NCBI GenBank assembly: GCA_964525625.1
Contig: CAZGKY010000001.1
Coordinates: forward strand, 1 to 57,373
Origin: an uncultured Atribacterota bacterium
Lineage (GTDB): Bacteria > Atribacterota > Phoenicimicrobiia > Phoenicimicrobiales > Stramentimicrobiaceae
DNA: 57,373 bases
Reading direction: 5' to 3'
Shown: positions 1,921 to 23,305 of the stretch, piece after piece
Numbering within the stretch: the stretch's first letter is position 1
Layout of the letters: each line of letters starts with the position of its first letter
Translations under genes and position numbers: made by a program
The notes under the pieces: generated by a model
Told to the model about the DNA's origin: nothing
Databases searched by the model: none
What the model saw: the letters and a program-made list of their open reading frames with translations, nothing else

Positions 1921-2511
1921 ATGGTAAAGATTTCTGATTGTGCGCAAAAAACAGATGCTCAGTTAGTTGCCCTGGCTTTAAAAAATCAGGAATATTACTA
2001 TTGTATTATGAAAAGATATGAATTAGCTTTAATGGGCTATATCTATAAGTTATCTGGAATGAATAAAATGGAAATTGAAGATGTCGTACAGGAAGTCTTT
2101 ATTCTGGCTTATCAAAATTTAAATGATTACAATACAAATTTTAAATTTTCCAGCTGGATTTATCGTATTGCTCATAATTACACTATTAGTGTGATGCGCA
2201 AAAATCCAAAATACTACCAAAATATCTCCTGGGATGAACATGACTTAGAACAGCTGATAGAATCAGATTTTAATCTGGAAGAAAATATGTTGCAAAAAAT
2301 AGATTACGAAAAATTACTTCATATTATTGATTCATTACCCTTAAAATATAAAGAGGTGCTCTTATTAAAATATTTAGAAGAAAAAGATTATCAAGAAATT
2401 AGTGATATCCTAAGAAAGCCTATCGGAACGATTGGCACCTTGATCAACCGAGCAAAGAAGATATTACGCAAAGAAATCGAAAAGTTCAAAGTAGGTATTA
2501 AATATGATTGA
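1921..2511 (+). CDS. ECF-type sigma-70 family RNA polymerase sigma factor
   Basis: 196 aa. Region-2-like QEVFILAYQNLNDY...FSSWIYRIAHN and region-4 HTH YQEISDILRKPIGTIGTLINRAKKILR. Confidence 0.85.
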   Translation: MVKISDCAQKTDAQLVALALKNQEYYYCIMKRYELALMGYIYKLSGMNKMEIEDVVQEVFILAYQNLNDYNTNFKFSSWIYRIAHNYTISVMRKNPKYYQNISWDEHDLEQLIESDFNLEENMLQKIDYEKLLHIIDSLPLKYKEVLLLKYLEEKDYQEISDILRKPIGTIGTLINRAKKILRKEIEKFKVGIKYD

Positions 2512-3241
2512 TATTAGTAAAGAAACTCTAGAAAAAATTAAAAAAGAAGGAGTACATCCTAAACCACGCTGGTATTTTTTAACTAAGAATTACTTTTTCT
2601 GGTTAATGTTTGCTTTAACTACAATTCTAGGTGGTATGGCATTTGGAATGATAATGTTTCTAGCGGGTGATCTGGATTGGGATATTTATCACTATCTTGG
2701 TATCAGCTTACCCAAAGCAATACTAATGAGTCTTCCTTACCTATGGATTATCTTATTGCTGCTTTTTCTGTTTATTACTTACTATAATTTCATCCATACC
2801 CGAACTGGTTATCGCTATCGCTTTGTAATGATATTTTTTATTGGCCTGTTCCTTAGCGGTTTAATGGGATTGGGCTTTTATCAATATGGCTGGACTGAAA
2901 CTGTAGATAAACAGCTACGAATGAGGATGCCAGGCTATCATCACTTAGTCTATAGCAGAGAGAGTCAATGGATGCATCCCGAAAAAGGTCTACTAAGTGG
3001 TATTATTGTAAAGATAAAGACAGAGGAAAAAATGATCTGGTTAGAAGATGAGTTGGGTAATCAGTGGAATATCGATATAAGCCAGGCTCGATTTAAGGGT
3101 GTTTCCTCTATAGAACAAAATATGCCTATCCGAATCATTGGTAAAAAATTATCTTCTAATTCCTTTCAGGCCATAGAAATTAGGGGAGATAAGGGTTTGA
3201 AACTGGGACCAGGAAGAAGAAAAATGATTAAATCTAATTAA
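2504..3241 (+). CDS. Multi-pass membrane protein, putative anti-sigma factor partner
   Basis: Overlaps the sigma gene stop by 8 nt, suggesting translational coupling. Several hydrophobic helices follow a short cytoplasmic N-terminus. No HxxxCxxC zinc anti-sigma motif was seen. Confidence 0.4.
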   Translation: MIDISKETLEKIKKEGVHPKPRWYFLTKNYFFWLMFALTTILGGMAFGMIMFLAGDLDWDIYHYLGISLPKAILMSLPYLWIILLLLFLFITYYNFIHTRTGYRYRFVMIFFIGLFLSGLMGLGFYQYGWTETVDKQLRMRMPGYHHLVYSRESQWMHPEKGLLSGIIVKIKTEEKMIWLEDELGNQWNIDISQARFKGVSSIEQNMPIRIIGKKLSSNSFQAIEIRGDKGLKLGPGRRKMIKSN

Positions 3242-3302
3242 ACCATATCATTAACTTTTTTTGTACTAATGACCATTATTCTTTATTATCTTCGGTCATT
3301 AA

Positions 3303-4025
3303 TCACTTTACTTGGTTTCGAGCTTTTTGCAAATTGGCATCCAGCTCATTAGTCTGAACAGAACTAGGCACAACTTTAGACTGACTAAAATCGATAACTA
3401 CCTTTTCTGCTCCTAAGTTTTTAGCTAAAGTTAAGAGGGTCTGTCGTGCTGAATTTTCAACTTCCGATTGTAATTTATTAACCACCCCTTCAGCCAGTTT
3501 AGCAGCCTGATTTTTTGCTTCTTCTTTTAAAAGATTTTTCTCTATTTCACTAAAACCGGAACCAAAGGCCCGGTTTAATAAATCAGGCAATAACCAGGGC
3601 AAAAATTTGGAATTCTGCTCATCATAAAAGCTTATATCACGAATATGCACCTGATAAAGACAAGGAGGCATTTTTAGAGTATATCTATGTTCACCTGATT
3701 GCTCAATCTTAAAATCAGGACTGCGTAGATCGTAACGAAAATCAATATCAAATTCAAAGATCATAGCCATCTTCTTGGTAGAAACTAACCATTGGAAGTA
3801 TCTCTTGCCAATATCACCAAACCAATGTTGAGAGGCAGTAACAATCTCCTTAGTGACCATCTTAAAGGCTACCAGTTCTCCTACCGAACGAAGTTGCTCT
3901 ATTGATGAATATATACGAACCTCCTTCCCCGAACCACGAGGGCGAAAGAATAACCACCACAAAGCTATAAAGAGAATAGATGATAAGACAAAACCAAGCA
4001 GAACAAAAATTATATTTTCCGACAT
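3303..4025 (-). CDS. DUF4230-like membrane-anchored protein
   Basis: 240 aa with an N-terminal TM helix. Pattern LRSVGELVAFKM...MIFEFDIDFRYDL...ARQTLLTLAKNLGAEKVVIDF matches my recollection of DUF4230. Confidence 0.5.
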   Translation of the reverse strand: MSENIIFVLLGFVLSSILFIALWWLFFRPRGSGKEVRIYSSIEQLRSVGELVAFKMVTKEIVTASQHWFGDIGKRYFQWLVSTKKMAMIFEFDIDFRYDLRSPDFKIEQSGEHRYTLKMPPCLYQVHIRDISFYDEQNSKFLPWLLPDLLNRAFGSGFSEIEKNLLKEEAKNQAAKLAEGVVNKLQSEVENSARQTLLTLAKNLGAEKVVIDFSQSKVVPSSVQTNELDANLQKARNQVK

Positions 4026-4221
4026 TAATTTTTTCCTCCTTGGTTGTTACTTATGCTTCTGAGTATAATTCCAAACTCATCTTACTAATTATTTTATGCT
4101 ATAATTTTTTGGCAGGTTTCATCTTATAAGCTAAGAAATAATTCTTCTAACTAAGTATACCATAAAAGTATAGTATAAGTTTAATTAATCATACATTTAC
4201 TAACCTTTCATTATTTTTATA

Positions 4222-5223
4222 TTATTTTACTAATAGCTCAGCAATTTGAACTGCATTTAGGGCAGCTCCTTTTCTGAGATTATCAGAAACGATCCATATT
4301 ACTAATCCTGGATGGAAGACCAGGTCTTTTCTTATACGCCCGACAAATACCTCATCTCTTCCTTCTGTCATTAAAGGAAATGGATAAAGAGATTTCTCAG
4401 GCTGATCAATTACCTTAAGCCCAGGGGAATTTGCTAATAATTTTCTGGCCTGCTCAGGAGTTATTTCTTTTTTTGTTTCTATATGCACATCTTCAGCATG
4501 AGATCGCAAAACAGGAACTCTTACTGTCGTTGCTGAAACATTAATATGATCATCATGAAGAATCTTTCTGGTTTCCTTAAGCATCTTTATCTCTTCTGAG
4601 GAGTAACCCTGTTCGTCAAAAGAACCAATATGAGGTAGTACATTAAAGGCAATTTGATAAGGATATACATTAATATTGATATATTTTTCTTCTAAAGTTG
4701 CTTCTGTTTGTTCTTTTAACTCCTCCAGTGCTTCTTTTCCTGTACCAGAAACTGACTGATAAGTAGAACAGATAACATTTTTGATACCTACCGCATCATA
4801 AATTGGTTTTAAAGCAACTACCATTTGAATAGTAGAGCAATTAGGATTAGCAATAATACCATGGTGTTTTTGAACATCATCCGGATTAACTTCTGGAACA
4901 ACCAGAGGAACTTCAGGGTTCATCCTGTAATATTTACCATTATCTATGACCACTGCTCCAGCTTGAACGGCAAGAGGAGCAAAATATTTACTAACTTCAT
5001 CTCCTCCAGAAAAGAGAGCTATATCAATACTGGTAAATGCTCTATCTTTTAGTTCTTTAACTTTAATTTTTTCACTCTTAAAATGATATTCCTTTCCCTT
5101 TGAACGATGAGAAGCATATAGCAACAGGTTTTTTACCGGGAAATTCCTCTGTTCCAAAACTTTGATCATTTCTTCCCCTACTGCACCTGTAGCACCTACT
5201 ATTGCTATATTATAATATTTCAT
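4222..5223 (-). CDS. asd: Aspartate-semialdehyde dehydrogenase
   Basis: 333 aa. N-terminal IAIVGATGAVG Rossmann motif and active-site NPNCSTIQ. Lies immediately downstream of thrB-lysC. Confidence 0.92.
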   Translation of the reverse strand: MKYYNIAIVGATGAVGEEMIKVLEQRNFPVKNLLLYASHRSKGKEYHFKSEKIKVKELKDRAFTSIDIALFSGGDEVSKYFAPLAVQAGAVVIDNGKYYRMNPEVPLVVPEVNPDDVQKHHGIIANPNCSTIQMVVALKPIYDAVGIKNVICSTYQSVSGTGKEALEELKEQTEATLEEKYININVYPYQIAFNVLPHIGSFDEQGYSSEEIKMLKETRKILHDDHINVSATTVRVPVLRSHAEDVHIETKKEITPEQARKLLANSPGLKVIDQPEKSLYPFPLMTEGRDEVFVGRIRKDLVFHPGLVIWIVSDNLRKGAALNAVQIAELLVK

Positions 5224-16563: not shown

Positions 16564-17068
16564 ATTCTACACTCCTTAATTTTTATTAATTTGTTTTTTT
16601 TTGTGAAATTTAGAAATTATTTAATAAATATCAAGACATAGTGAACTCTTTCTAATGATATTAAAATATTAATCCAGCGGGAACTCCCCACCTGTAAGGG
16701 TGGGGATGAGAGCATGTTCCTGTATCTTCCGTTCGTACTTTGATATAATAATGATATGAGACTCAGAAAATCGTCCCATACCGTATACCAGACCCAATAT
16801 CATATCGTCTGGATTACCCGTTTCCGAAGGAAGATACTCCTTAGGGGAGTCAAAGACTATCTGAAGATAAAGCTTCTAGAGATTAGAAAGTACTATCCAG
16901 ACTGGGAATATCTGGAGATTGGCATCGATATTGATCACATCCATTTGTATATGTTGATCCCTCCCAAGTATGCGGTAAGCAAGGTGGTGGAAACTATCAA
17001 GTCCAATACCAGTAGAGCACTGAAAGAAAAATTTACCTTCCTGCAAAAGGTCTACTGGGACGGTGGAA

Positions 17069-18463
17069 GAGATACTGTCAAATGTTGTGGATGAATAAAT
17101 TCACATCCTTTGGAACATTAACCGTTATGCCACTTTATCTACCAGCTCTCCATCCCGGAATTCTTTGTTCTCTAAGACCAGTGGAATCATTTGATATCCC
17201 CTAAGCCGCCGCCAGTTCTTTTGGGCCTCCTGGGCCAATTTGAAGACCATACTCAAGGTAGCCTTTCGGGATCCACAGCCTTTGGTCCGTTTGGTTCTCA
17301 ATCGTACCGTGGCAAAGGTAGACTCGATCGGATTGGTGGTCCGAATAGGCATCCAGTGTACGGCCGGAAAATCATAGAAGGTAAACAGATCTTCAGAGTC
17401 TTTACTCAGACATTCGGCTGCTTTGGGATATTTATCACTATAGGAAGCCAGGAAATGATCATAAGCCTGTAATGCTTCTTGTTTTGTTTCAGCCTGATAC
17501 AGCTCATGGATCAGGGATTTGGCCTTGGACTGGATAGCCTTAGGTAGTTTATCTAAGATGTTGGCTGTCTTGTGTACCCAGCAGCGTTGCCGGCGGGTTT
17601 GAGGGAAGACCTCTGCTAGGGCTGCCCAGAAGCCTAAGGCGCCATCACCGATCGCCAGTTTGGGCATCTGCTGTAATCCTCTTTCTTTCAGATCCAGTAG
17701 CATCTCCCGCCAGGCGATCTTGCTTTCCCGATAGCCGTCAGAGAGGGCAATGAGTTCTTTGTTACCCTCAGCATCTGCTCCCATGATGAGGAGGATACAG
17801 GAGCGCTCCTCATCCAGTCGGACCTGGAAATAGATGCCATCTACCCAGAGATAGACATAGTGTTTATGGGATAGATCCCGTTTAACCCATCTTTCATATT
17901 CGGCTTCCCAGCATCTCTTGAGCCGCACGATATTGGCCGGAGAAAGTCCTTTTACCCCTTCTCCTAAGATGGCAGTTAGAGCCTGGGGAAAATCATTGCT
18001 GCTGATGCCCTTCAGGTAAAGATAGGGAATGAGGTTATCCACACTGGGCATTCTACGCAGATACTTGGGCAGGATCGTACTGGTAAAGCGCTTCTGCTTC
18101 CTTCGATCATCGACCCGTGGTTGTCTGATAGGAATAGGACCTATTCCAGAGATAATGGAACGACTAGGATGGTAACCGTTACGCACCACGGTTTTTCTTC
18201 CCAAAGAATCTCTATCTTGCCTATGTGCTTTTATATATTCTTCCACTTCTAATTCCAAAGCCTGCTGTAACATCTTCCGTGCTCCTTCCCTGGCTAGCTG
18301 TTCTAATACCGACCAGGTTTCACTTTTTTCTGGACAAAAGTCCATCTCTTGAGTATACTGACTCATAAGCATATCCCTTTCTCATTTGGAAATATTTTTA
18401 TTGAACATACTTTCCAAAGGATATGCTTTTTTTATCATTCTGTCCACAACTTTTGATTATAAC
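17069..18463 (-). mobile_element. IS256-family insertion sequence with 9-bp target duplication
   Basis: Imperfect IRs GAGATACTGTCAAATGTTGTGGA and GAGTTATAATCAAAAGTTGTGGAC. Direct repeat ACGGTGGAA at 17060-17068 and 18464-18472. Confidence 0.85.
17125..18372 (-). CDS. IS256 family (Mutator-type) transposase
   Basis: 415 aa intact ORF with YLWVDGIYFQVR, RCWVHKTANILDKLPK and TTNPIESTFATVRLRTKRTKG. Confidence 0.9.
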   Translation of the reverse strand: MLMSQYTQEMDFCPEKSETWSVLEQLAREGARKMLQQALELEVEEYIKAHRQDRDSLGRKTVVRNGYHPSRSIISGIGPIPIRQPRVDDRRKQKRFTSTILPKYLRRMPSVDNLIPYLYLKGISSNDFPQALTAILGEGVKGLSPANIVRLKRCWEAEYERWVKRDLSHKHYVYLWVDGIYFQVRLDEERSCILLIMGADAEGNKELIALSDGYRESKIAWREMLLDLKERGLQQMPKLAIGDGALGFWAALAEVFPQTRRQRCWVHKTANILDKLPKAIQSKAKSLIHELYQAETKQEALQAYDHFLASYSDKYPKAAECLSKDSEDLFTFYDFPAVHWMPIRTTNPIESTFATVRLRTKRTKGCGSRKATLSMVFKLAQEAQKNWRRLRGYQMIPLVLENKEFRDGELVDKVA

Positions 18464-18472
18464 TCACGGTGG

Positions 18473-18512
18473 AAATCCCATGGGCAAGCCCATGGTATTC
18501 TGCCCTTCGGGT
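18473..18512. repeat. 46-nt two-hairpin mini-element, copy 1 (first 6 nt at 17063-17068, split by IS256)
   Basis: gtggaa|atCCCATGGGcaagCCCATGGtattctGCCCttcgGGGTta. It is absent from the otherwise collinear tnpA of IS200 copy 1. Confidence 0.6.
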
Positions 18513-18680
18513 TAATAAAGGTATATGGGTGAAAGGTTATTTTGTCTCCACAGTGGGGATCAACGAGAAGATAATCCAAGCATACGTCGCATACGTCCGA
18601 ATGCAAGAAGAGGAGGATACATGACAAGCGGAGCTTGAATTTTGAGAGCACCACGCCTGTAAGGGCGTGGGTGTCTATGT

Positions 18681-18956
18681 GGTCAGACCTCCCTGGGTAA
18701 GAATAATAGCCTTCACCCCATCTACCTGCTACATCTACTACACCATCTTTGGGCAGTATCGGATTTTGTTTTGACTAGCAAACTCATCCAGATGATATAG
18801 CCTCCTATGCAGTTCGTGTTCCTCAGGCCGGGACTTTGCCGCCGACTTCCTTCAGATTCCATCTCACGATGGACACCCTTGTCTTGGGCTAATGGTTGCT
18901 ACTGCCAACCCCATAACAGACTTTCACTGTCAAGTGATTACTCACGCCGGGCGCAA
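18681..18956 (-). mobile_element. 5' fragment (domain I) of a second group IIC intron copy, truncated by IS200 copy 2
   Basis: The minus strand starts UUGCGCCCGGCGUGAG and contains CAAGGGUGUCC...AUGGAAUCUGAAGGAAG...CUGAGGAACACGAAC...GGAUGAGUUUGC...CUUACCCAGGGAGGUCUGAC. These blocks match the O. iheyensis IIC intron as I recall it. Confidence 0.7.
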
Positions 18957-18998
18957 TCGAGTAGGAGGTAGATGATTAATTCATCTACCGTCCTCTCA

Positions 18999-20839
18999 GT
19001 CGAGTAGCACAGTGCAATTTCACCTCTATGCTCTCACGGAACCGTACGTGAACCTCTCAATTCATACGGCTCTTATCATTCTACCTTATGGTAATATCCC
19101 AAGAGACCAATGTAAAAACATAGCGGGCTCTCTTTGGGCAAGTTTCCTTAACCACTCACTAGCTCTACGTTGATGATTCTTGAAACGCTTGTATTTACAC
19201 ATTGCCCATTTGATCAATCTGCGGTTGACCCAATCCATCGTATATCTGACAGCAGAAAAATTAAATCTTCCAAAGTAGTTCAGCCATCCCCTGATCAGGG
19301 GGCTTAATAATTCCGCCAGCATTTCAATTTTGCATCCTGTCCTAAGATGTATGTTCAAAGCTTTCAGTTTATCCCGAAAGGCTTTCGCTGATTTCCTGCT
19401 TACCGAGGCTAAGAAGTTGAATTGCAGTCTACCCAATCTATCCTTTATGAATATTCTTTTGAATGTGTATCCCAGAAAATCAAACTCCGTATGGGGATAA
19501 TTTTCTGTTCTATCTTTATCCTTACAGTAGATTATCTTGGTCTTTTGGGGATGTAATTCCAGCTTACATTCTGTTAATCTCACCTTCAATGCTGCCAGAA
19601 TTTCTAGCGCCCTTTGTTCAGATATACAGTGTATGATGGCATCATCTGCATACCTCTCAAAGGGAGCATCGGGATAATTCCTGGTTATCCATCTGTCAAA
19701 GGCATAGTGCATAAACAAGTTGGCCAGTATTGGACTTACGACACCGCCCTGAGGAGTACCACTTTTCCTTGCTATTACTTCCTTCGTTTCGGTAATGAAT
19801 GGTGTTTTCAGCCATCTTTCGATATAGAGAATGATCCACGACTGTTGGATATGCTTCCTTACCGCCCTCATCAGCAGTTCATGGTCAATGTGGTCAAATA
19901 GACCCTTAATGTCCAATTCAATCACATAGTCATACCTCCAGCATCTTCTTCTGGCTTGACCTATGGCATCCAATGCTGATTTGTGAGGTCTATAGCCATA
20001 GGAGTCTTGATGGAAGATAGGCTCAATCAGGGGTTCAAGGTATAGATTGACCACCATTTGCGCAACCCTGTCACTGACTGTGGGTATCCCTAACATCCTA
20101 GTTCCTCCTGATTTCTTTGGTATCTGGACTGCTTTTACCGGTGGAGGGAAGTAACTTCCCGAGCTCATTCTGTTCCAGATTTTATACAGGTTTCCTTTCA
20201 GGTTCTGCTCAAATTCTTCTAAATCCTGTCCATCAACTCCACAACTTCCTCTGTTTGCTTTTACCTTTTGATAAGCAGTCATGACTACTTGCTTAGAAAT
20301 TTCATAAGGTTTGCTGTCTTTCATCGGTTCCTCCTGTCTTTTGACAGTTGTCTTTTGAATCCAGCCAAATGATACAATCCCTTTGCTCGGTTGTCATTAC
20401 GGCAACTTCTTCGCTACTACGGATTGTTCCGCCCCTGTACTATACCTCGCTATTTCGGCCTCGCCTTTCTGTGACTTGCGCCTTTTCGCTTATCATTACA
20501 ATACAGGTTCCTGTGTTTCGCAATAGAGCCTGTCGTACGCTCATGCCGTCTTCATACCGGTTGCCAAGTAGACAGCGATCAGGTTTACCTCTACTCTTAT
20601 CCTTAACCAGTGGTGAGAGTTAAGTTTTGACAACATTTTACGTTATCGATACTTCCTAGACGGTTCACTTTCGTTCATCTTCGTACAACTTACATGACTA
20701 TTTTATGAATAGCCTTTTCCTTAATCGCTCACTACCATGCCTCTTAGGCACAGCAGCATTAAGGTTGTTTGGTGAGTTTGCCTGTACAATCCTCATCGAA
20801 GGGCCTTCCTTTATCTCTCTTGCAACTTGCACAGCACAC
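18999..20839 (-). mobile_element. RT-encoding group II intron (inner intron B)
   Basis: 5' GUGUG at 20839. DIII-like ...CCGUAGUAGCGAAGAAG.... RT ORF in domain IV. Domain V GAGCCGUAUGAAUUGAGAGGUUCACGUACGGUUC (19039-19072). DVI has a bulged A, and the intron ends ...CUACUCGAC at 18999. Confidence 0.75.
19086..20324 (-). CDS. Group II intron reverse transcriptase/maturase (no endonuclease domain)
   Basis: 412 aa with GVDG, LGIPTVSDRVAQ, GTPQGGVVSPILANL, YADD and a maturase X-like C-terminus (LIRGWLNYFG). GGAGGAA RBS upstream. Confidence 0.92.
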   Translation of the reverse strand: MKDSKPYEISKQVVMTAYQKVKANRGSCGVDGQDLEEFEQNLKGNLYKIWNRMSSGSYFPPPVKAVQIPKKSGGTRMLGIPTVSDRVAQMVVNLYLEPLIEPIFHQDSYGYRPHKSALDAIGQARRRCWRYDYVIELDIKGLFDHIDHELLMRAVRKHIQQSWIILYIERWLKTPFITETKEVIARKSGTPQGGVVSPILANLFMHYAFDRWITRNYPDAPFERYADDAIIHCISEQRALEILAALKVRLTECKLELHPQKTKIIYCKDKDRTENYPHTEFDFLGYTFKRIFIKDRLGRLQFNFLASVSRKSAKAFRDKLKALNIHLRTGCKIEMLAELLSPLIRGWLNYFGRFNFSAVRYTMDWVNRRLIKWAMCKYKRFKNHQRRASEWLRKLAQREPAMFLHWSLGILP

Positions 20840-21488
20840 CACCACCGTACATACCGTTCAGTATACGGCGGTTCGTTAAGAATAAATTACTTGTGCATGT
20901 CATTCTGTAGAATAATAGAATATGCATTTTCACTGTTTCTTCGGTTATCTGACGCCGAAGGAATACTAAGCACTTTTCCAATATCTGAGGCTTCCAGCCT
21001 ACTCTTTTGGAAATAGCCTTCCTAAGAAGTTGTCTGCTTTAATCGTATTTCTCTCGAGTCCTTCAAACTTCCAAAACCTCTTAACGTTCAGCCCTTCAGA
21101 TAGCACTACTTATCATTGAATGCCATCCTACTATGGCCTCTGCTGACTTCTGACAGTTCAGGCACACATCACTGTGTGGGTTGTTGTCAATCCATATTCA
21201 CAACTTACCTGTCAGACCTCCCCGCTTAAGAACAATAACTTTCGTCTCATGTCACCGCTACATTTACACCGTGGAATTCGGGTAGTGTTGGACTTTGTTT
21301 TGTTAGGCAAACTCGTCCATTCCACATATGCCTTCTATGTAGTTTCTGTTCGACGGTGCAAGACTTTGCCTACAGCTTCCTTCAGATTCCACCTCACGGT
21401 GGACACCCTTGCTGTTTGGCTAATGGTTCCCACTACCAAGCCCATAGCAGACTTTCACTGCCAAGTTATTGCCCATGTCGGGCGAACC

Positions 21489-21525
21489 TAGACATCCACC
21501 ACGCCCTTACAGGCGTGGATGTCTA
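21489..21525. repeat. Solo IS200-RE-like extended hairpin abutting the 5' end of intron A
   Basis: tagacatccaccacgcc-cttaca-ggcgtggatgtcta. The core ccacgcc/ggcgtgg and the loop are the same as the RE hairpins of both IS200 copies. Confidence 0.7.
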
Positions 21526-21774
21526 TTAAAACCAGGTCTTTCCCTTACCCAGACTCTGGTAAATCTCTTTGAGAGACTCACCTTTTAGATACCTTCTAAT
21601 TGTCTTTTTTTAACTCTTCTATAATTATATACTGACCTACATATTACTAAGTTCAGTATAGAATATCTAGGCTAATAGTTCGCAATGTGTGTAAACTTTT
21701 TTTCACTAAGGTTCACGATGTATATAAATTTGTTAACTGTTATTTAACAAGATGTTAATTAACAACAGTTCCAA

Positions 21775-21815
21775 AGATAATCAGGGGGCTCCGCCCCCCC
21801 CTGAAACCCCCTTAC
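21775..21815. repeat. REP-like hairpin repeat, divergent copy R4
   Basis: agataatcagggggCTCCGccccccctgaAACCCCCttactc, with the same architecture as R1-R3. Confidence 0.45.
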
Positions 21816-21842
21816 TCTCTTCCAGAAGAGCTTTCATCTTAT

Positions 21843-22076
21843 TTAATCTTCATCTTCCCCATCTTCCAACCTCACACCTTGTAGGTAAATCTCGGTAAGC
21901 TCTGTTTGACCAACTTCGGTCAGTTCCACTTCATCTAAGGTTAACGGCCCACAGTGAGGACACTTAATCTGATTTTCAAACTGAGGCCTTCCCTCGACTA
22001 ACTCAAAGCTTATCTTACCTACCTCAAAGTCAAACACCCTTTTACATTCTTTGCATTTAAAGTTAATAAATGGCAT
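21843..22076 (-). CDS. Small zinc-ribbon protein (FmdB-like) with acidic tail
   Basis: 77 aa. CKEC...CPHCG pair of CxxC motifs and an acidic C-terminus (EDGEDED). Confidence 0.45.
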   Translation of the reverse strand: MPFINFKCKECKRVFDFEVGKISFELVEGRPQFENQIKCPHCGPLTLDEVELTEVGQTELTEIYLQGVRLEDGEDED

Positions 22077-22086
22077 AATATCTCCT

Positions 22087-23305
22087 ATGGAAATTCTATC
22101 ATCTCAACCTAAAATTTCAATAAAGAAAATTTTTAAAGATTACTGGCCAGATTATTTAGCCACTCACCGAGATTCTATCCTGGACTATATCATCATCACC
22201 ATAAAGAAGATGCTTTCCGGTAGAGATCCAGAAAAACTTGGTTATCATAAGTATGCCTGTCCCGAGCATCCCGACCAGTATATAGTTGTTCCACATTCCT
22301 GTAAATCTCGCCTCTTAATACCTGTGGCAGGATTCTTACCGATAAATGGGTAAAAGAGGTTAATTCCCTCTTCCCCGAGCACCCTTTCATCATCTTTGTT
22401 TTACCCTTCCCAGAGAGCTAAGAAAGCTTCTAAAAGATTATAGGTTTTTATTTGACTGTCTTTTTACCGCCTCCAAAGAGACAGTTCTCTCTTTTTGTAA
22501 AGAAAATTTCTTCCGGCAATTGTTTCTTCTCTTCATACCTTGGGAGGAGACCTTAAAGATAATCCTCATATTCATATGCTCATCTCTTCCGGTGGTATTG
22601 ACCTAAAAGTAAGAAGACAGAATAGATGGAAAGATCACTCCTTTTTCCCCTTTAAGATGCTTCATAAAAGAGATAGGTTTCTTTTGGTCAAACATCTTAA
22701 AGAGAAAGTATTACCCACTATCTTAAAGAGCATCCTGAAGAAAAAGGGGAGTTAAAAGTATTTAAAGCCAAACAAGTTTTGGATGCTTTCTGTAACCCTT
22801 TCTTAAAGATAAACTGGTATGTTTATGACTCAACTGACTTAGAGCCAGAAAGGTTTACCGTAGGCTATATTCTTCGCTACGCAAAAAGGCCAGCCACCCT
22901 TAGCTGAATGTAGAATCTGCCAGTATGGAGAAATAAAAGGAAAAGAAGGTAGCTGGGTAACTTTTACTTATAAAGAAAGAGAAGCTTCTGAAGTAAAATA
23001 TACTGTCTTAAGTGGAAAAATTCATTACTCTCCTCATTCAACATATCCTTCCTCCCAATTTTAGGGTAGTGCGTTACGGTGGTCTTTTATCAAGTAGGCT
23101 TAAGGATAGATATGAAAAGATAATCCACAGGCTTTCTAGATGTGAGGCGGAAAGAGAAAAACTTAAAGGGTGGAGAGCGAGACAGATTCTTTTTACCGGA
23201 AAAGACCCCCTAATTTGTCTTACTTGCGGAAATGAGATGAAACTGGTAGAAGTTGCCTTTCTCTCTTCTAAAGAGGGGGAAATGGTAGTTTATGAACCTC
23301 CTTAG
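22087..23305 (+). pseudogene. IS91-family (Y2/HUH rolling-circle) transposase pseudogene, multiply frameshifted
   Basis: Three frames are needed. They carry a zinc-binding-domain-like YACPEHPDQYIVVPHSCKSR, then PHIHMLISSGGIDL, then LPPNFRVVRYGGLLSSRLK...CLTCGNEM. Confidence 0.6.

Follow-up and report, generated by a model that had tools for sequence, protein, structure and literature searches.

A 57,373-nt stretch of DNA from an uncultured Atribacterota bacterium (assembly GCA_964525625.1, contig CAZGKY010000001.1; hereafter the window, to whose full length all coordinates refer) contains a group II intron that encodes a reverse transcriptase (RT) and lies inside a second group II intron that has no open reading frame (ORF). 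We call the outer intron A and the inner intron B; both, together with a fragment of a third intron (C) that directly follows A, are read on the minus strand. A is preceded by a 15-bp hairpin at 21526-21497 (core CCACGCC-TGTAAG-GGCGTGG, then UCUAG), which by its sequence is the target stem-loop in A's 5′ exon. The 5′ segment of A, an ORF-less ribozyme of group IIC recognized by Rfam matches and by colinearity with uninterrupted homologues, runs from 21487 to 20840. It begins with GUUCGCCC (5′ end GUUCG) and includes a 216-nt domain IV without an ORF (DIV, 21090-20875; domains are abbreviated DI to DVI), a 34-nt DV hairpin with a CGC triad (20874-20841), and the first nucleotide of the linker between DV and DVI (J5/6), a G at 20840. 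Here, one nucleotide past DV, B opens with GUGUG at 20839 and extends for 1841 nt to 18999, a complete intron by Rfam, Pfam, and nhmmer mapping against ~45 homologous loci. It has a loop CACCAC at 20615-20610 that serves as exon-binding site 1 (EBS1), an RT/maturase ORF of 412 aa (20324-19086), a DV with an AGC triad (19072-19039), a DVI with a bulged A at 19005, and the 3′ terminus ..CUACUCGAC, ending GAC. The 43-nt 3′ segment of A then resumes at 18998 with the second J5/6 nucleotide, a U, continues with a DVI composed of a basal helix GAG/CUC, a distal 9-bp helix, an AUUAA loop, and a bulged branch A at 18962, and finishes with the tail GAU, so that the 3′ end is CUCGAU at 18956.

The nesting of RT-encoding B within ORF-less A is confirmed, because alignment to homologues, covariance models, folding, and covariation all agree. 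An Rfam scan finds two separate sets of group II domains, not one contiguous intron with a single DV. The first set is of IIC type (D1D4-3, RF02001, 153 bits at 21403-21231; D1D4-1, RF01998, representing DII-DIII, 70.7 bits at 21183-21091), and the second belongs to B (D1D4-2, RF01999, 90.5 bits at 20812-20693; DV-DVI, RF00029, 60 bits at 19074-18999). When B is removed in silico, joining 21487-20840 to 18998-18956, the resulting 691-nt spliced A aligns over positions 1-691, with no gap at the junction, to an uninterrupted metagenomic intron (L137) at 91.5% identity; identity to the uninterrupted L141 is 90.6% and to L101 89.9%. The contiguous DV-DVI of L137 scores 47.6 bits with RF00029 (gathering score 40), and this match ends at the base equivalent to 18956. 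Joined in the same way, the DV and DVI of the window fold at -38.2 kcal/mol, compared with -17.5 ± 3.1 for shuffles (z = -6.6). For 25 outer DV-DVI sequences, each joined in silico and taken from different loci, RNAalifold gives a DV of canonical form and leaves one A of the DVI bulged and unpaired; 14/26 pairs are maintained by compensatory changes on both sides. CTCGAT is also the constant 3′ end of 17 members of A's family whose downstream sequences differ. The locus has the marks of a twintron, namely a complete inner intron and outer halves that adjoin directly in homologues free of the insert. RF00029 gives no match to the DV of A (20874-20841), even at E ≤ 10 in the scan of 17000-22000; since this model spans DV plus DVI, which here lie 1.84 kb apart, its silence is explained by the split and is no evidence against that DV.

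A is a non-autonomous IIC derivative. It has IIC-type DI and DII-DIII, a compact spliced ribozyme of 691 nt including DIV, a CGC triad in DV, a 3-bp basal helix and bulged A in DVI, a ..GAU end, and a position directly after a stem-loop (UCUAG|). The IIC trait that it lacks is a class C RT in DIV, where we found neither an ORF nor, by tblastn, an RT remnant. An earlier note, made from the letters of the window alone, had placed an RT-encoding intron one nucleotide after the DV of a IIC intron with no ORF in DIV, had read the hairpin behind B as the outer DVI with its bulged A, and had predicted that excision restores GGUGGUG|UGAGAGG. All of this holds, the last through comparison with homologues whose site is empty, and the two IIC-type Rfam matches bear out its assignment of the 5′ segment to class C DI-DIII. 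Its reading of 20841-20874 as a DV fails as a stand-alone RF00029 match, an outcome that the note had counted as a refutation, but stands through the score of the contiguous homologue. The structure that it gave for the outer intron is sound, with a 3′ end at 18956 rather than 18957 and 43 rather than 42 nt after B; what it overlooked is intron C, abutting A, and the target-specific lineage to which B belongs.

B has the expected group II features, including its GUGUG 5′ end, the RF01999 and RF00029 matches, and the unpaired A at 19005. Its 412-aa protein contains RVT_1 (E = 1.3e-43) and GIIM (E = 4.5e-19) domains in Pfam, with the YADD motif intact; no endonuclease (En) domain was found in it. 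The best solved relatives of this RT are IIC RTs (E ~1e-46), and it is only 31% identical to a IIC RT of the outer introns. EBS1 (CACCAC) forms a perfect 6-bp pairing with GUGGUG at 20845-20840, the last six exon bases. The corresponding intron-binding site 1 (IBS1) therefore consists of five bases at the 3′ end of the host DV helix, which pair with the CGC-triad strand, and the first base of J5/6. Among 31 distinct B-type 5′ regions that we aligned, the EBS1 loop UCACCACU is unchanged in 29, and the sole change, CAGCAC, is common to the near-identical copies L025 and L029. L025 lies in a IIC intron with GUGGUG, to which CAGCAC leaves one mismatch, while in L029 the altered loop matches the intron's own IBS1, GUGCUG. 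L029 (~2489 in a Lachnospiraceae metagenome-assembled genome, or MAG) is a B-type intron outside any IIC intron, with a 5′ flank ..AUGUGCUG that matches its altered EBS1, and looks like a case of ectopic retrotransposition. Two distant, variable segments in the DI of B (window 20650-20490; alignment columns ~187-200 and ~343-356) looked complementary to the exon and were tried as EBS2 candidates. They were rejected because strong mutual covariation across the 31 sequences (e.g., UUGUACGA/GCGUACGA and AUAUGCA/UGCAUAU) shows that they form a long-range internal helix, not an exon-binding site.

B is one member of a lineage found at the same intron position in many hosts. Relatives of its RT number in the thousands, and we collected locus contexts through exact-protein look-ups and a scan of one genome per species, with intron ends mapped by nhmmer profiles. 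Among the 38 genome loci encoding an RT with ≥61% identity to that of B, 36 have a B-type intron with the same flanks (an automatic count of 34 plus L011 and L041, added by eye); the remaining two are the ectopic L029 and a locus cut by a contig end. The shared flanks read ...GAACCGCCGUAUACCGAACGGUACGUACGGUGGUG | GUGUGC...CUACUCGAC | UGAGAGGnCGG-hairpin-CCUCCUACUCGAU, and nhmmer mapping shows the junction to be conserved over ~45 loci. All six loci from the first exact-protein look-ups have this junction, and in every one IIC modules precede the B-type intron. We considered and rejected an assembly artefact, the same junction being present in the complete genomes CP021780 and CP022572. Hosts include Neobacillus, Paenibacillus, Cohnella, Metabacillus, Clostridium, Lachnospiraceae, Oscillospiraceae, Lutispora, and Syntrophomonadaceae, along with a few non-Bacillota MAGs (Sphaerochaeta, Porphyromonadaceae). 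Relatives at ≤56% identity, from Actinomycetota and Proteobacteria, have mostly non-IIC flanks among those with mappable ends; L043 and L046, in this identity range, still have IIC-type flanks, and the ends of most others could not be mapped. As part of the overall explanation given below, which we hold with high confidence, the B-type lineage is mainly one of Bacillota and its natural homing site is the IIC DV-DVI linker.

Inner and outer introns have diverged to different extents. Two composites of Paenibacillus donghaensis (L002 and L003) differ at 0/1838 inner positions and 147/1857 outer positions, and two of Neobacillus mesonae (L005 and L006) differ at 0/1841 inner and 7/1829 outer positions. 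Between two Neobacillus species (L005 and L007) the counts are 42/1841 and 590/1850. Within a genome, inner copies are therefore identical while outer introns differ by up to 8%, which argues that B-type introns home independently into IIC linkers. Most outer introns encode their own IIC-type RT of ~420 aa (420 aa in L003-L007, for example). In one outer IIC intron (L087, 177-1591), whose B-type guest is 94% identical to that of the window, the intron's own RT is split into ORFs of 216 and 245 aa and looks to be decaying. A different arrangement occurs at ~2427-4345 in a Clostridiaceae MAG (L019) and in Lutispora saccharofermentans (L021), where IIC DI-DIII is followed directly by a B-type RT ORF, then the DV-DVI of B, and then an outer DVI. 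Apparently a deletion has removed the outer DV and the DI-DIII of B to leave a chimera, and because the two loci share flanks a single event is probable.

One alternative is that the window holds only a relic, in which B entered a single time, in some ancestor, and splicing no longer takes place, leaving three inactive introns amid mobile-element debris. The surroundings lend this some weight, as C is truncated by an IS200-like element (IS, insertion sequence) that itself holds an IS256-type insertion, the 5′ end of A (GUUCG) is atypical, and an exact-sequence look-up finds the protein of B on record nowhere else. However, the ORF of B is intact with its YADD motif, all of its ribozyme modules score well above Rfam thresholds, its EBS1-IBS1 pairing is perfect, and the modules of A score as full-length matches. 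GUUCG is also the 5′ end of the intact family members L137, L141, L101, and L123. We regard the relic as unlikely, though the strongest of the alternatives.

The absence of an ORF from A raises a second alternative, which extends a suggestion of the earlier note that the host could borrow the maturase of its guest: A would depend on B's RT/maturase for splicing or mobility, and the two would be a co-adapted unit that moves as a whole. Besides the window, ORF-less outer introns with a B-type guest occur at L001, L008, and L023, sharing DIV homology and starting GUUCG or GUACG, and one P. donghaensis composite is identical at two sites (L003 and L004). To sample A's relatives regardless of occupancy, we scanned metagenomes with a pattern that runs from a DIV motif to the end of DV and stops at the insertion point (L091-L154). 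The scan returned 64 stretches, 54 of which are IIC introns by blastn. The site is empty in 54/54 of these relatives, with UGAGAGG.. next, and GUGUGC follows in none. Full-length members are 656-690 nt long with a structured DIV of ~200 nt, and occupy sites behind a wide variety of terminator-like hairpins, with ..UUUAU| or ..UUUAG| in between and usually U as the next base. A search of viral contigs for ORF-less A-type introns gave 0 matches. The 54 relatives, all with empty sites and at many positions, show that A's non-autonomous IIC family is abundant and spreads in the absence of B.

Other evidence points the same way. B-type introns enter IIC introns whether or not these have an ORF, variation is far lower among inner than among outer copies, and the RT of B, at 31% identity, is distant from IIC RTs. 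A also retains the 5′ part of DIV that is common to ORF-containing IIC introns, and in L137 and L141 an A-type intron stands in tandem with an RT-encoding IIC intron, which suggests that the latter, rather than B's RT, is the likelier helper of A. A borrowed maturase thus finds no support here, and we consider dependence of A on B very improbable. Least probable by far, to the point of being negligible, is that the introns are not nested at all, whether as a truncated IIC intron, an independent B, and an unrelated hairpin or as one intron with duplicated DV/DVI: RF00029 is silent on A's DV and introns with repeated DV/DVI modules are known, such as the alternatively splicing C. tetani intron (PMC4424553), but uninterrupted homologues continue colinearly through the 43 nt that follow B, which correspond to their DVI and 3′ end (~90-91.5% identity over 691 nt), the DVI covaries across loci, B has its own GUGUG 5′ end, DI-DIII, and EBS1, and the junction is identical in ~45 loci.

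The twintron is itself probably lodged in a third intron. Directly after A's last base a second IIC DI begins with UGCGCCCGG (UGCGCCC), without G1. This 5′ fragment of C (18955-18682, ~275 nt of DI) scores 145 bits with RF02001 at 18873-18702 and is 75-83% identical to the DI of A at a constant offset of ~2530 nt. The junction CUCGAU|UGCGCC and the upstream ..UCUAG|GUUCG recur in L137 (from 883) and L141, with a IIC RT ORF in the second intron, and stand-alone relatives of C start GUGCGCC (L119, L117). Judging from these three tandem and two stand-alone cases, C was probably resident first and took up A between its G1 and U2. The nest would then be C>A>B, with the G at 21488 possibly representing C's first base, now displaced. 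The insertion point fits the preference of A's family, hairpin ... UAG | U. We also considered a circularly permuted group II RNA (PMC8637638), in which DVI leads directly into DI, and rejected it, as A is colinear with normal introns and the DI that follows belongs to a separate intron.

The hairpin before A belongs to a family with three copies in the window (16684-16713, 18649-18678, and 21497-21526), the first two of which are the ends of the IS200/IS605-like element and have a TGTAAG loop. The 20-nt core of the copy before A is 100% complementary to the IS end at 18651-18670, its exact inverse. In L141 and L137, too, A-type introns come after this hairpin and TCTAG, and in L141, L137, and L119 IIC introns directly follow homologous IS-end hairpins. 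A's IIC family seems to use IS200-type end hairpins as targets besides terminators.

We think it highly probable that the locus is a bacterial group II twintron formed when a mobile intron, B, retrohomed into the two-nucleotide DV-DVI linker of the ORF-less IIC intron A. A would have inserted after an IS200-type hairpin, most likely between the first and second nucleotides of C; B would have retrohomed into A's linker through the EBS1 pairing CACCAC/GUGGUG; and the IS200-like element would later have truncated C. Because its RT lacks an endonuclease domain, B would be expected to prime from replication forks, in line with what is established for En-minus group II introns (PMC4424553). In the precursor RNA, B would be excised first with the help of its own maturase, juxtaposing the DV and DVI of A for branching and 3′ splice-site choice. 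Before then A would be capable at most of hydrolysis at its 5′ site, a reaction that IIC ribozymes readily perform in vitro (PMC4748821, PMC1702495). Since IBS1 lies within the DV helix of A, exon binding by B and folding of A's DV would be mutually exclusive, imposing a kinetic order on the two splicing reactions. A would rely on a IIC-type RT in trans and not on that of B. The linker would be a favourable site for B in that DV cannot drift: its 3′ strand is among the most conserved IIC sequences and so would offer a renewable target that the host cannot easily mutate.

A bolder extension is that B-type introns are obligate parasites of parasites whose sole regular niche is the J5/6 of IIC introns, that their excision gates the branching and mobility of the host, and that the window holds a three-deep nest with ordered splicing. 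If the nest C>A>B did act as three splicing layers, clearing the RNA would take three ordered steps, B, then A, then C. We offer this extension tentatively and think it somewhat less likely to be right than wrong.

Several points weigh against the twintron explanation or parts of it. Sequential splicing, B before A, is reasonable to infer, and both this order and the activity of the introns are read from sequence. A may be inactive here, given a 5′ end of GUUCG rather than GUGYG and a broken intron as its 3′ exon. The EBS2/IBS2 pairing of B is only tentative, the candidate being an RCGUA loop against exon positions -14 to -10 with unusual spacing, and sequestration of IBS1 in the outer DV helix could hinder the splicing of B. 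The P. donghaensis copies L003 and L004 are identical throughout, with the whole composite at two different terminators, and co-mobilization of outer and inner intron may account for some copies. Finally, we found no description of IIC DV-DVI twintrons in the accessible literature, and an earlier record in subscription papers or an intron database is possible.

Twintrons are rare in bacteria, and the few studied cases target DIV or RT coding sequence. In the Euglena chloroplast twintrons (e.g., psbF; Copertino & Hallick 1991), the inner intron often has to be removed before the outer one can fold and splice (PMC4424553). There, as here, an inner group II intron breaks a functionally essential part of the outer ribozyme, but the Euglena introns are organellar, lie in protein-coding genes, usually lack an RT, and include no target-specific mobile lineage, whereas the window contains bacterial retroelements in non-coding DNA and the interrupted site is the DV-DVI linker of IIC introns. 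In Thermosynechococcus elongatus, TeI3 lies inside TeI4, and identical inner copies in diverged outer introns indicate recent independent insertion (Mohr et al. 2010, PMC2882425). That system is likewise bacterial, with a mobile intron homing to a conserved site in another and the same pattern of inner and outer divergence. However, its target is in DIV, where the insertion separates the first and second ATGs of the outer ORF; it is the outer intron that encodes the RT, the inner has no ORF, and the pair are close relatives within one intron family. In the B-type composites, by contrast, the RT belongs to the guest, the host may lack an ORF, guest and host differ in structural type, and the insertion lies in the catalytic core. 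A bacterial group II twintron with sequential splicing has also been reported from Trichodesmium (Pfreundt & Hess 2015, PMC4649490), which differs in being cyanobacterial and in having no IIC host.

Some group II introns have their homing site in the YADD motif of RT ORFs belonging to other such introns (M.a.I5 of Methanosarcina, UA.I3, P.l.I2, and B.th.I3; PMC2504315, PMC4424553). These resemble B in forming an endonuclease-less lineage that takes the most conserved retroelement sequence as its IBS, producing nested introns and securing a perpetual homing site. They differ in recognizing IBS1/IBS2 in the protein-coding RT active site, whereas the target of B is RNA-structural, the 3′ strand of DV. 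As for the outer introns, A (and C) resemble O.i.I1, B.h.I1, and GsI-IIC in their IIC-type DI and DII-DIII modules, and A shares the position after a stem-loop. The DV of A starts GAACCGCCGUAUAC.., the first 14 nt matching the O.i.I1 DV primer sequence, after which CGA stands against UGA in A, and its 3-bp DVI basal helix and G at -3 match the description of IIC introns (PMC4748821). Unlike those introns, A has no ORF, starts GUUCG, is interrupted by B, and follows an IS200-type hairpin, not a classical terminator.

Twintrons and introns that home into introns are thus already known, and what sets the present case apart is the RNA-structural core target, the direction, with an RT-bearing guest in a host that often bears an RT itself and here does not, and the breadth of the lineage, which is apparently unreported and of which the window copy is one ordinary member. 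Here the whole lineage is aimed at the RNA element most conserved in another intron class, namely the DV 3′ strand together with the DV-DVI linker. It offers a natural system for asking how a ribozyme tolerates or exploits a 1.8-kb insert between its catalytic hairpin and branch site, how an invading intron recognizes a target locked in a stable hairpin, and how layered selfish elements regulate one another. Non-autonomous group II elements could further be approached through the abundant 656-690-nt ORF-less IIC family, some members of which adjoin RT-encoding IIC introns in tandem. There is also a consequence for annotation, as the composites show up as two RT genes, or as one RT gene with orphan ribozyme halves, and papers on some intron-finding pipelines say that nested introns are overlooked or put aside (PMC4028801, PMC8919778).

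The flanks of the intron cluster contain further mobile elements. On one side, C ends at 18682, where it meets the IS200-like end hairpin at 18649-18678, and its remainder is absent. The IS200/IS605-like element that truncates it spans 16684-18678 on the plus strand and is recognized by its end hairpins and by a Y1 transposase ORF at 16756-17094 (Pfam Y1_Tnp, E = 5.7e-20). This ORF is interrupted by an IS256/Mutator-type element at 17094-18433 with 22-nt inverted ends, whose transposase is encoded on the minus strand at 18372-17125 (Transposase_mut, E = 3.2e-66). Between the two IS ends, 18450-18493 resembles part of a IIC DI (..CCACCGUGAG..), which may be chance or a small intron fragment. 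On the other side, a Zn-ribbon ORF at 21843-22076 (minus strand) overlaps an ORF at 22051-22353 (plus strand) with an IS91-type transposase zinc-binding domain, and the two are further mobile-element debris beside the intron cluster.

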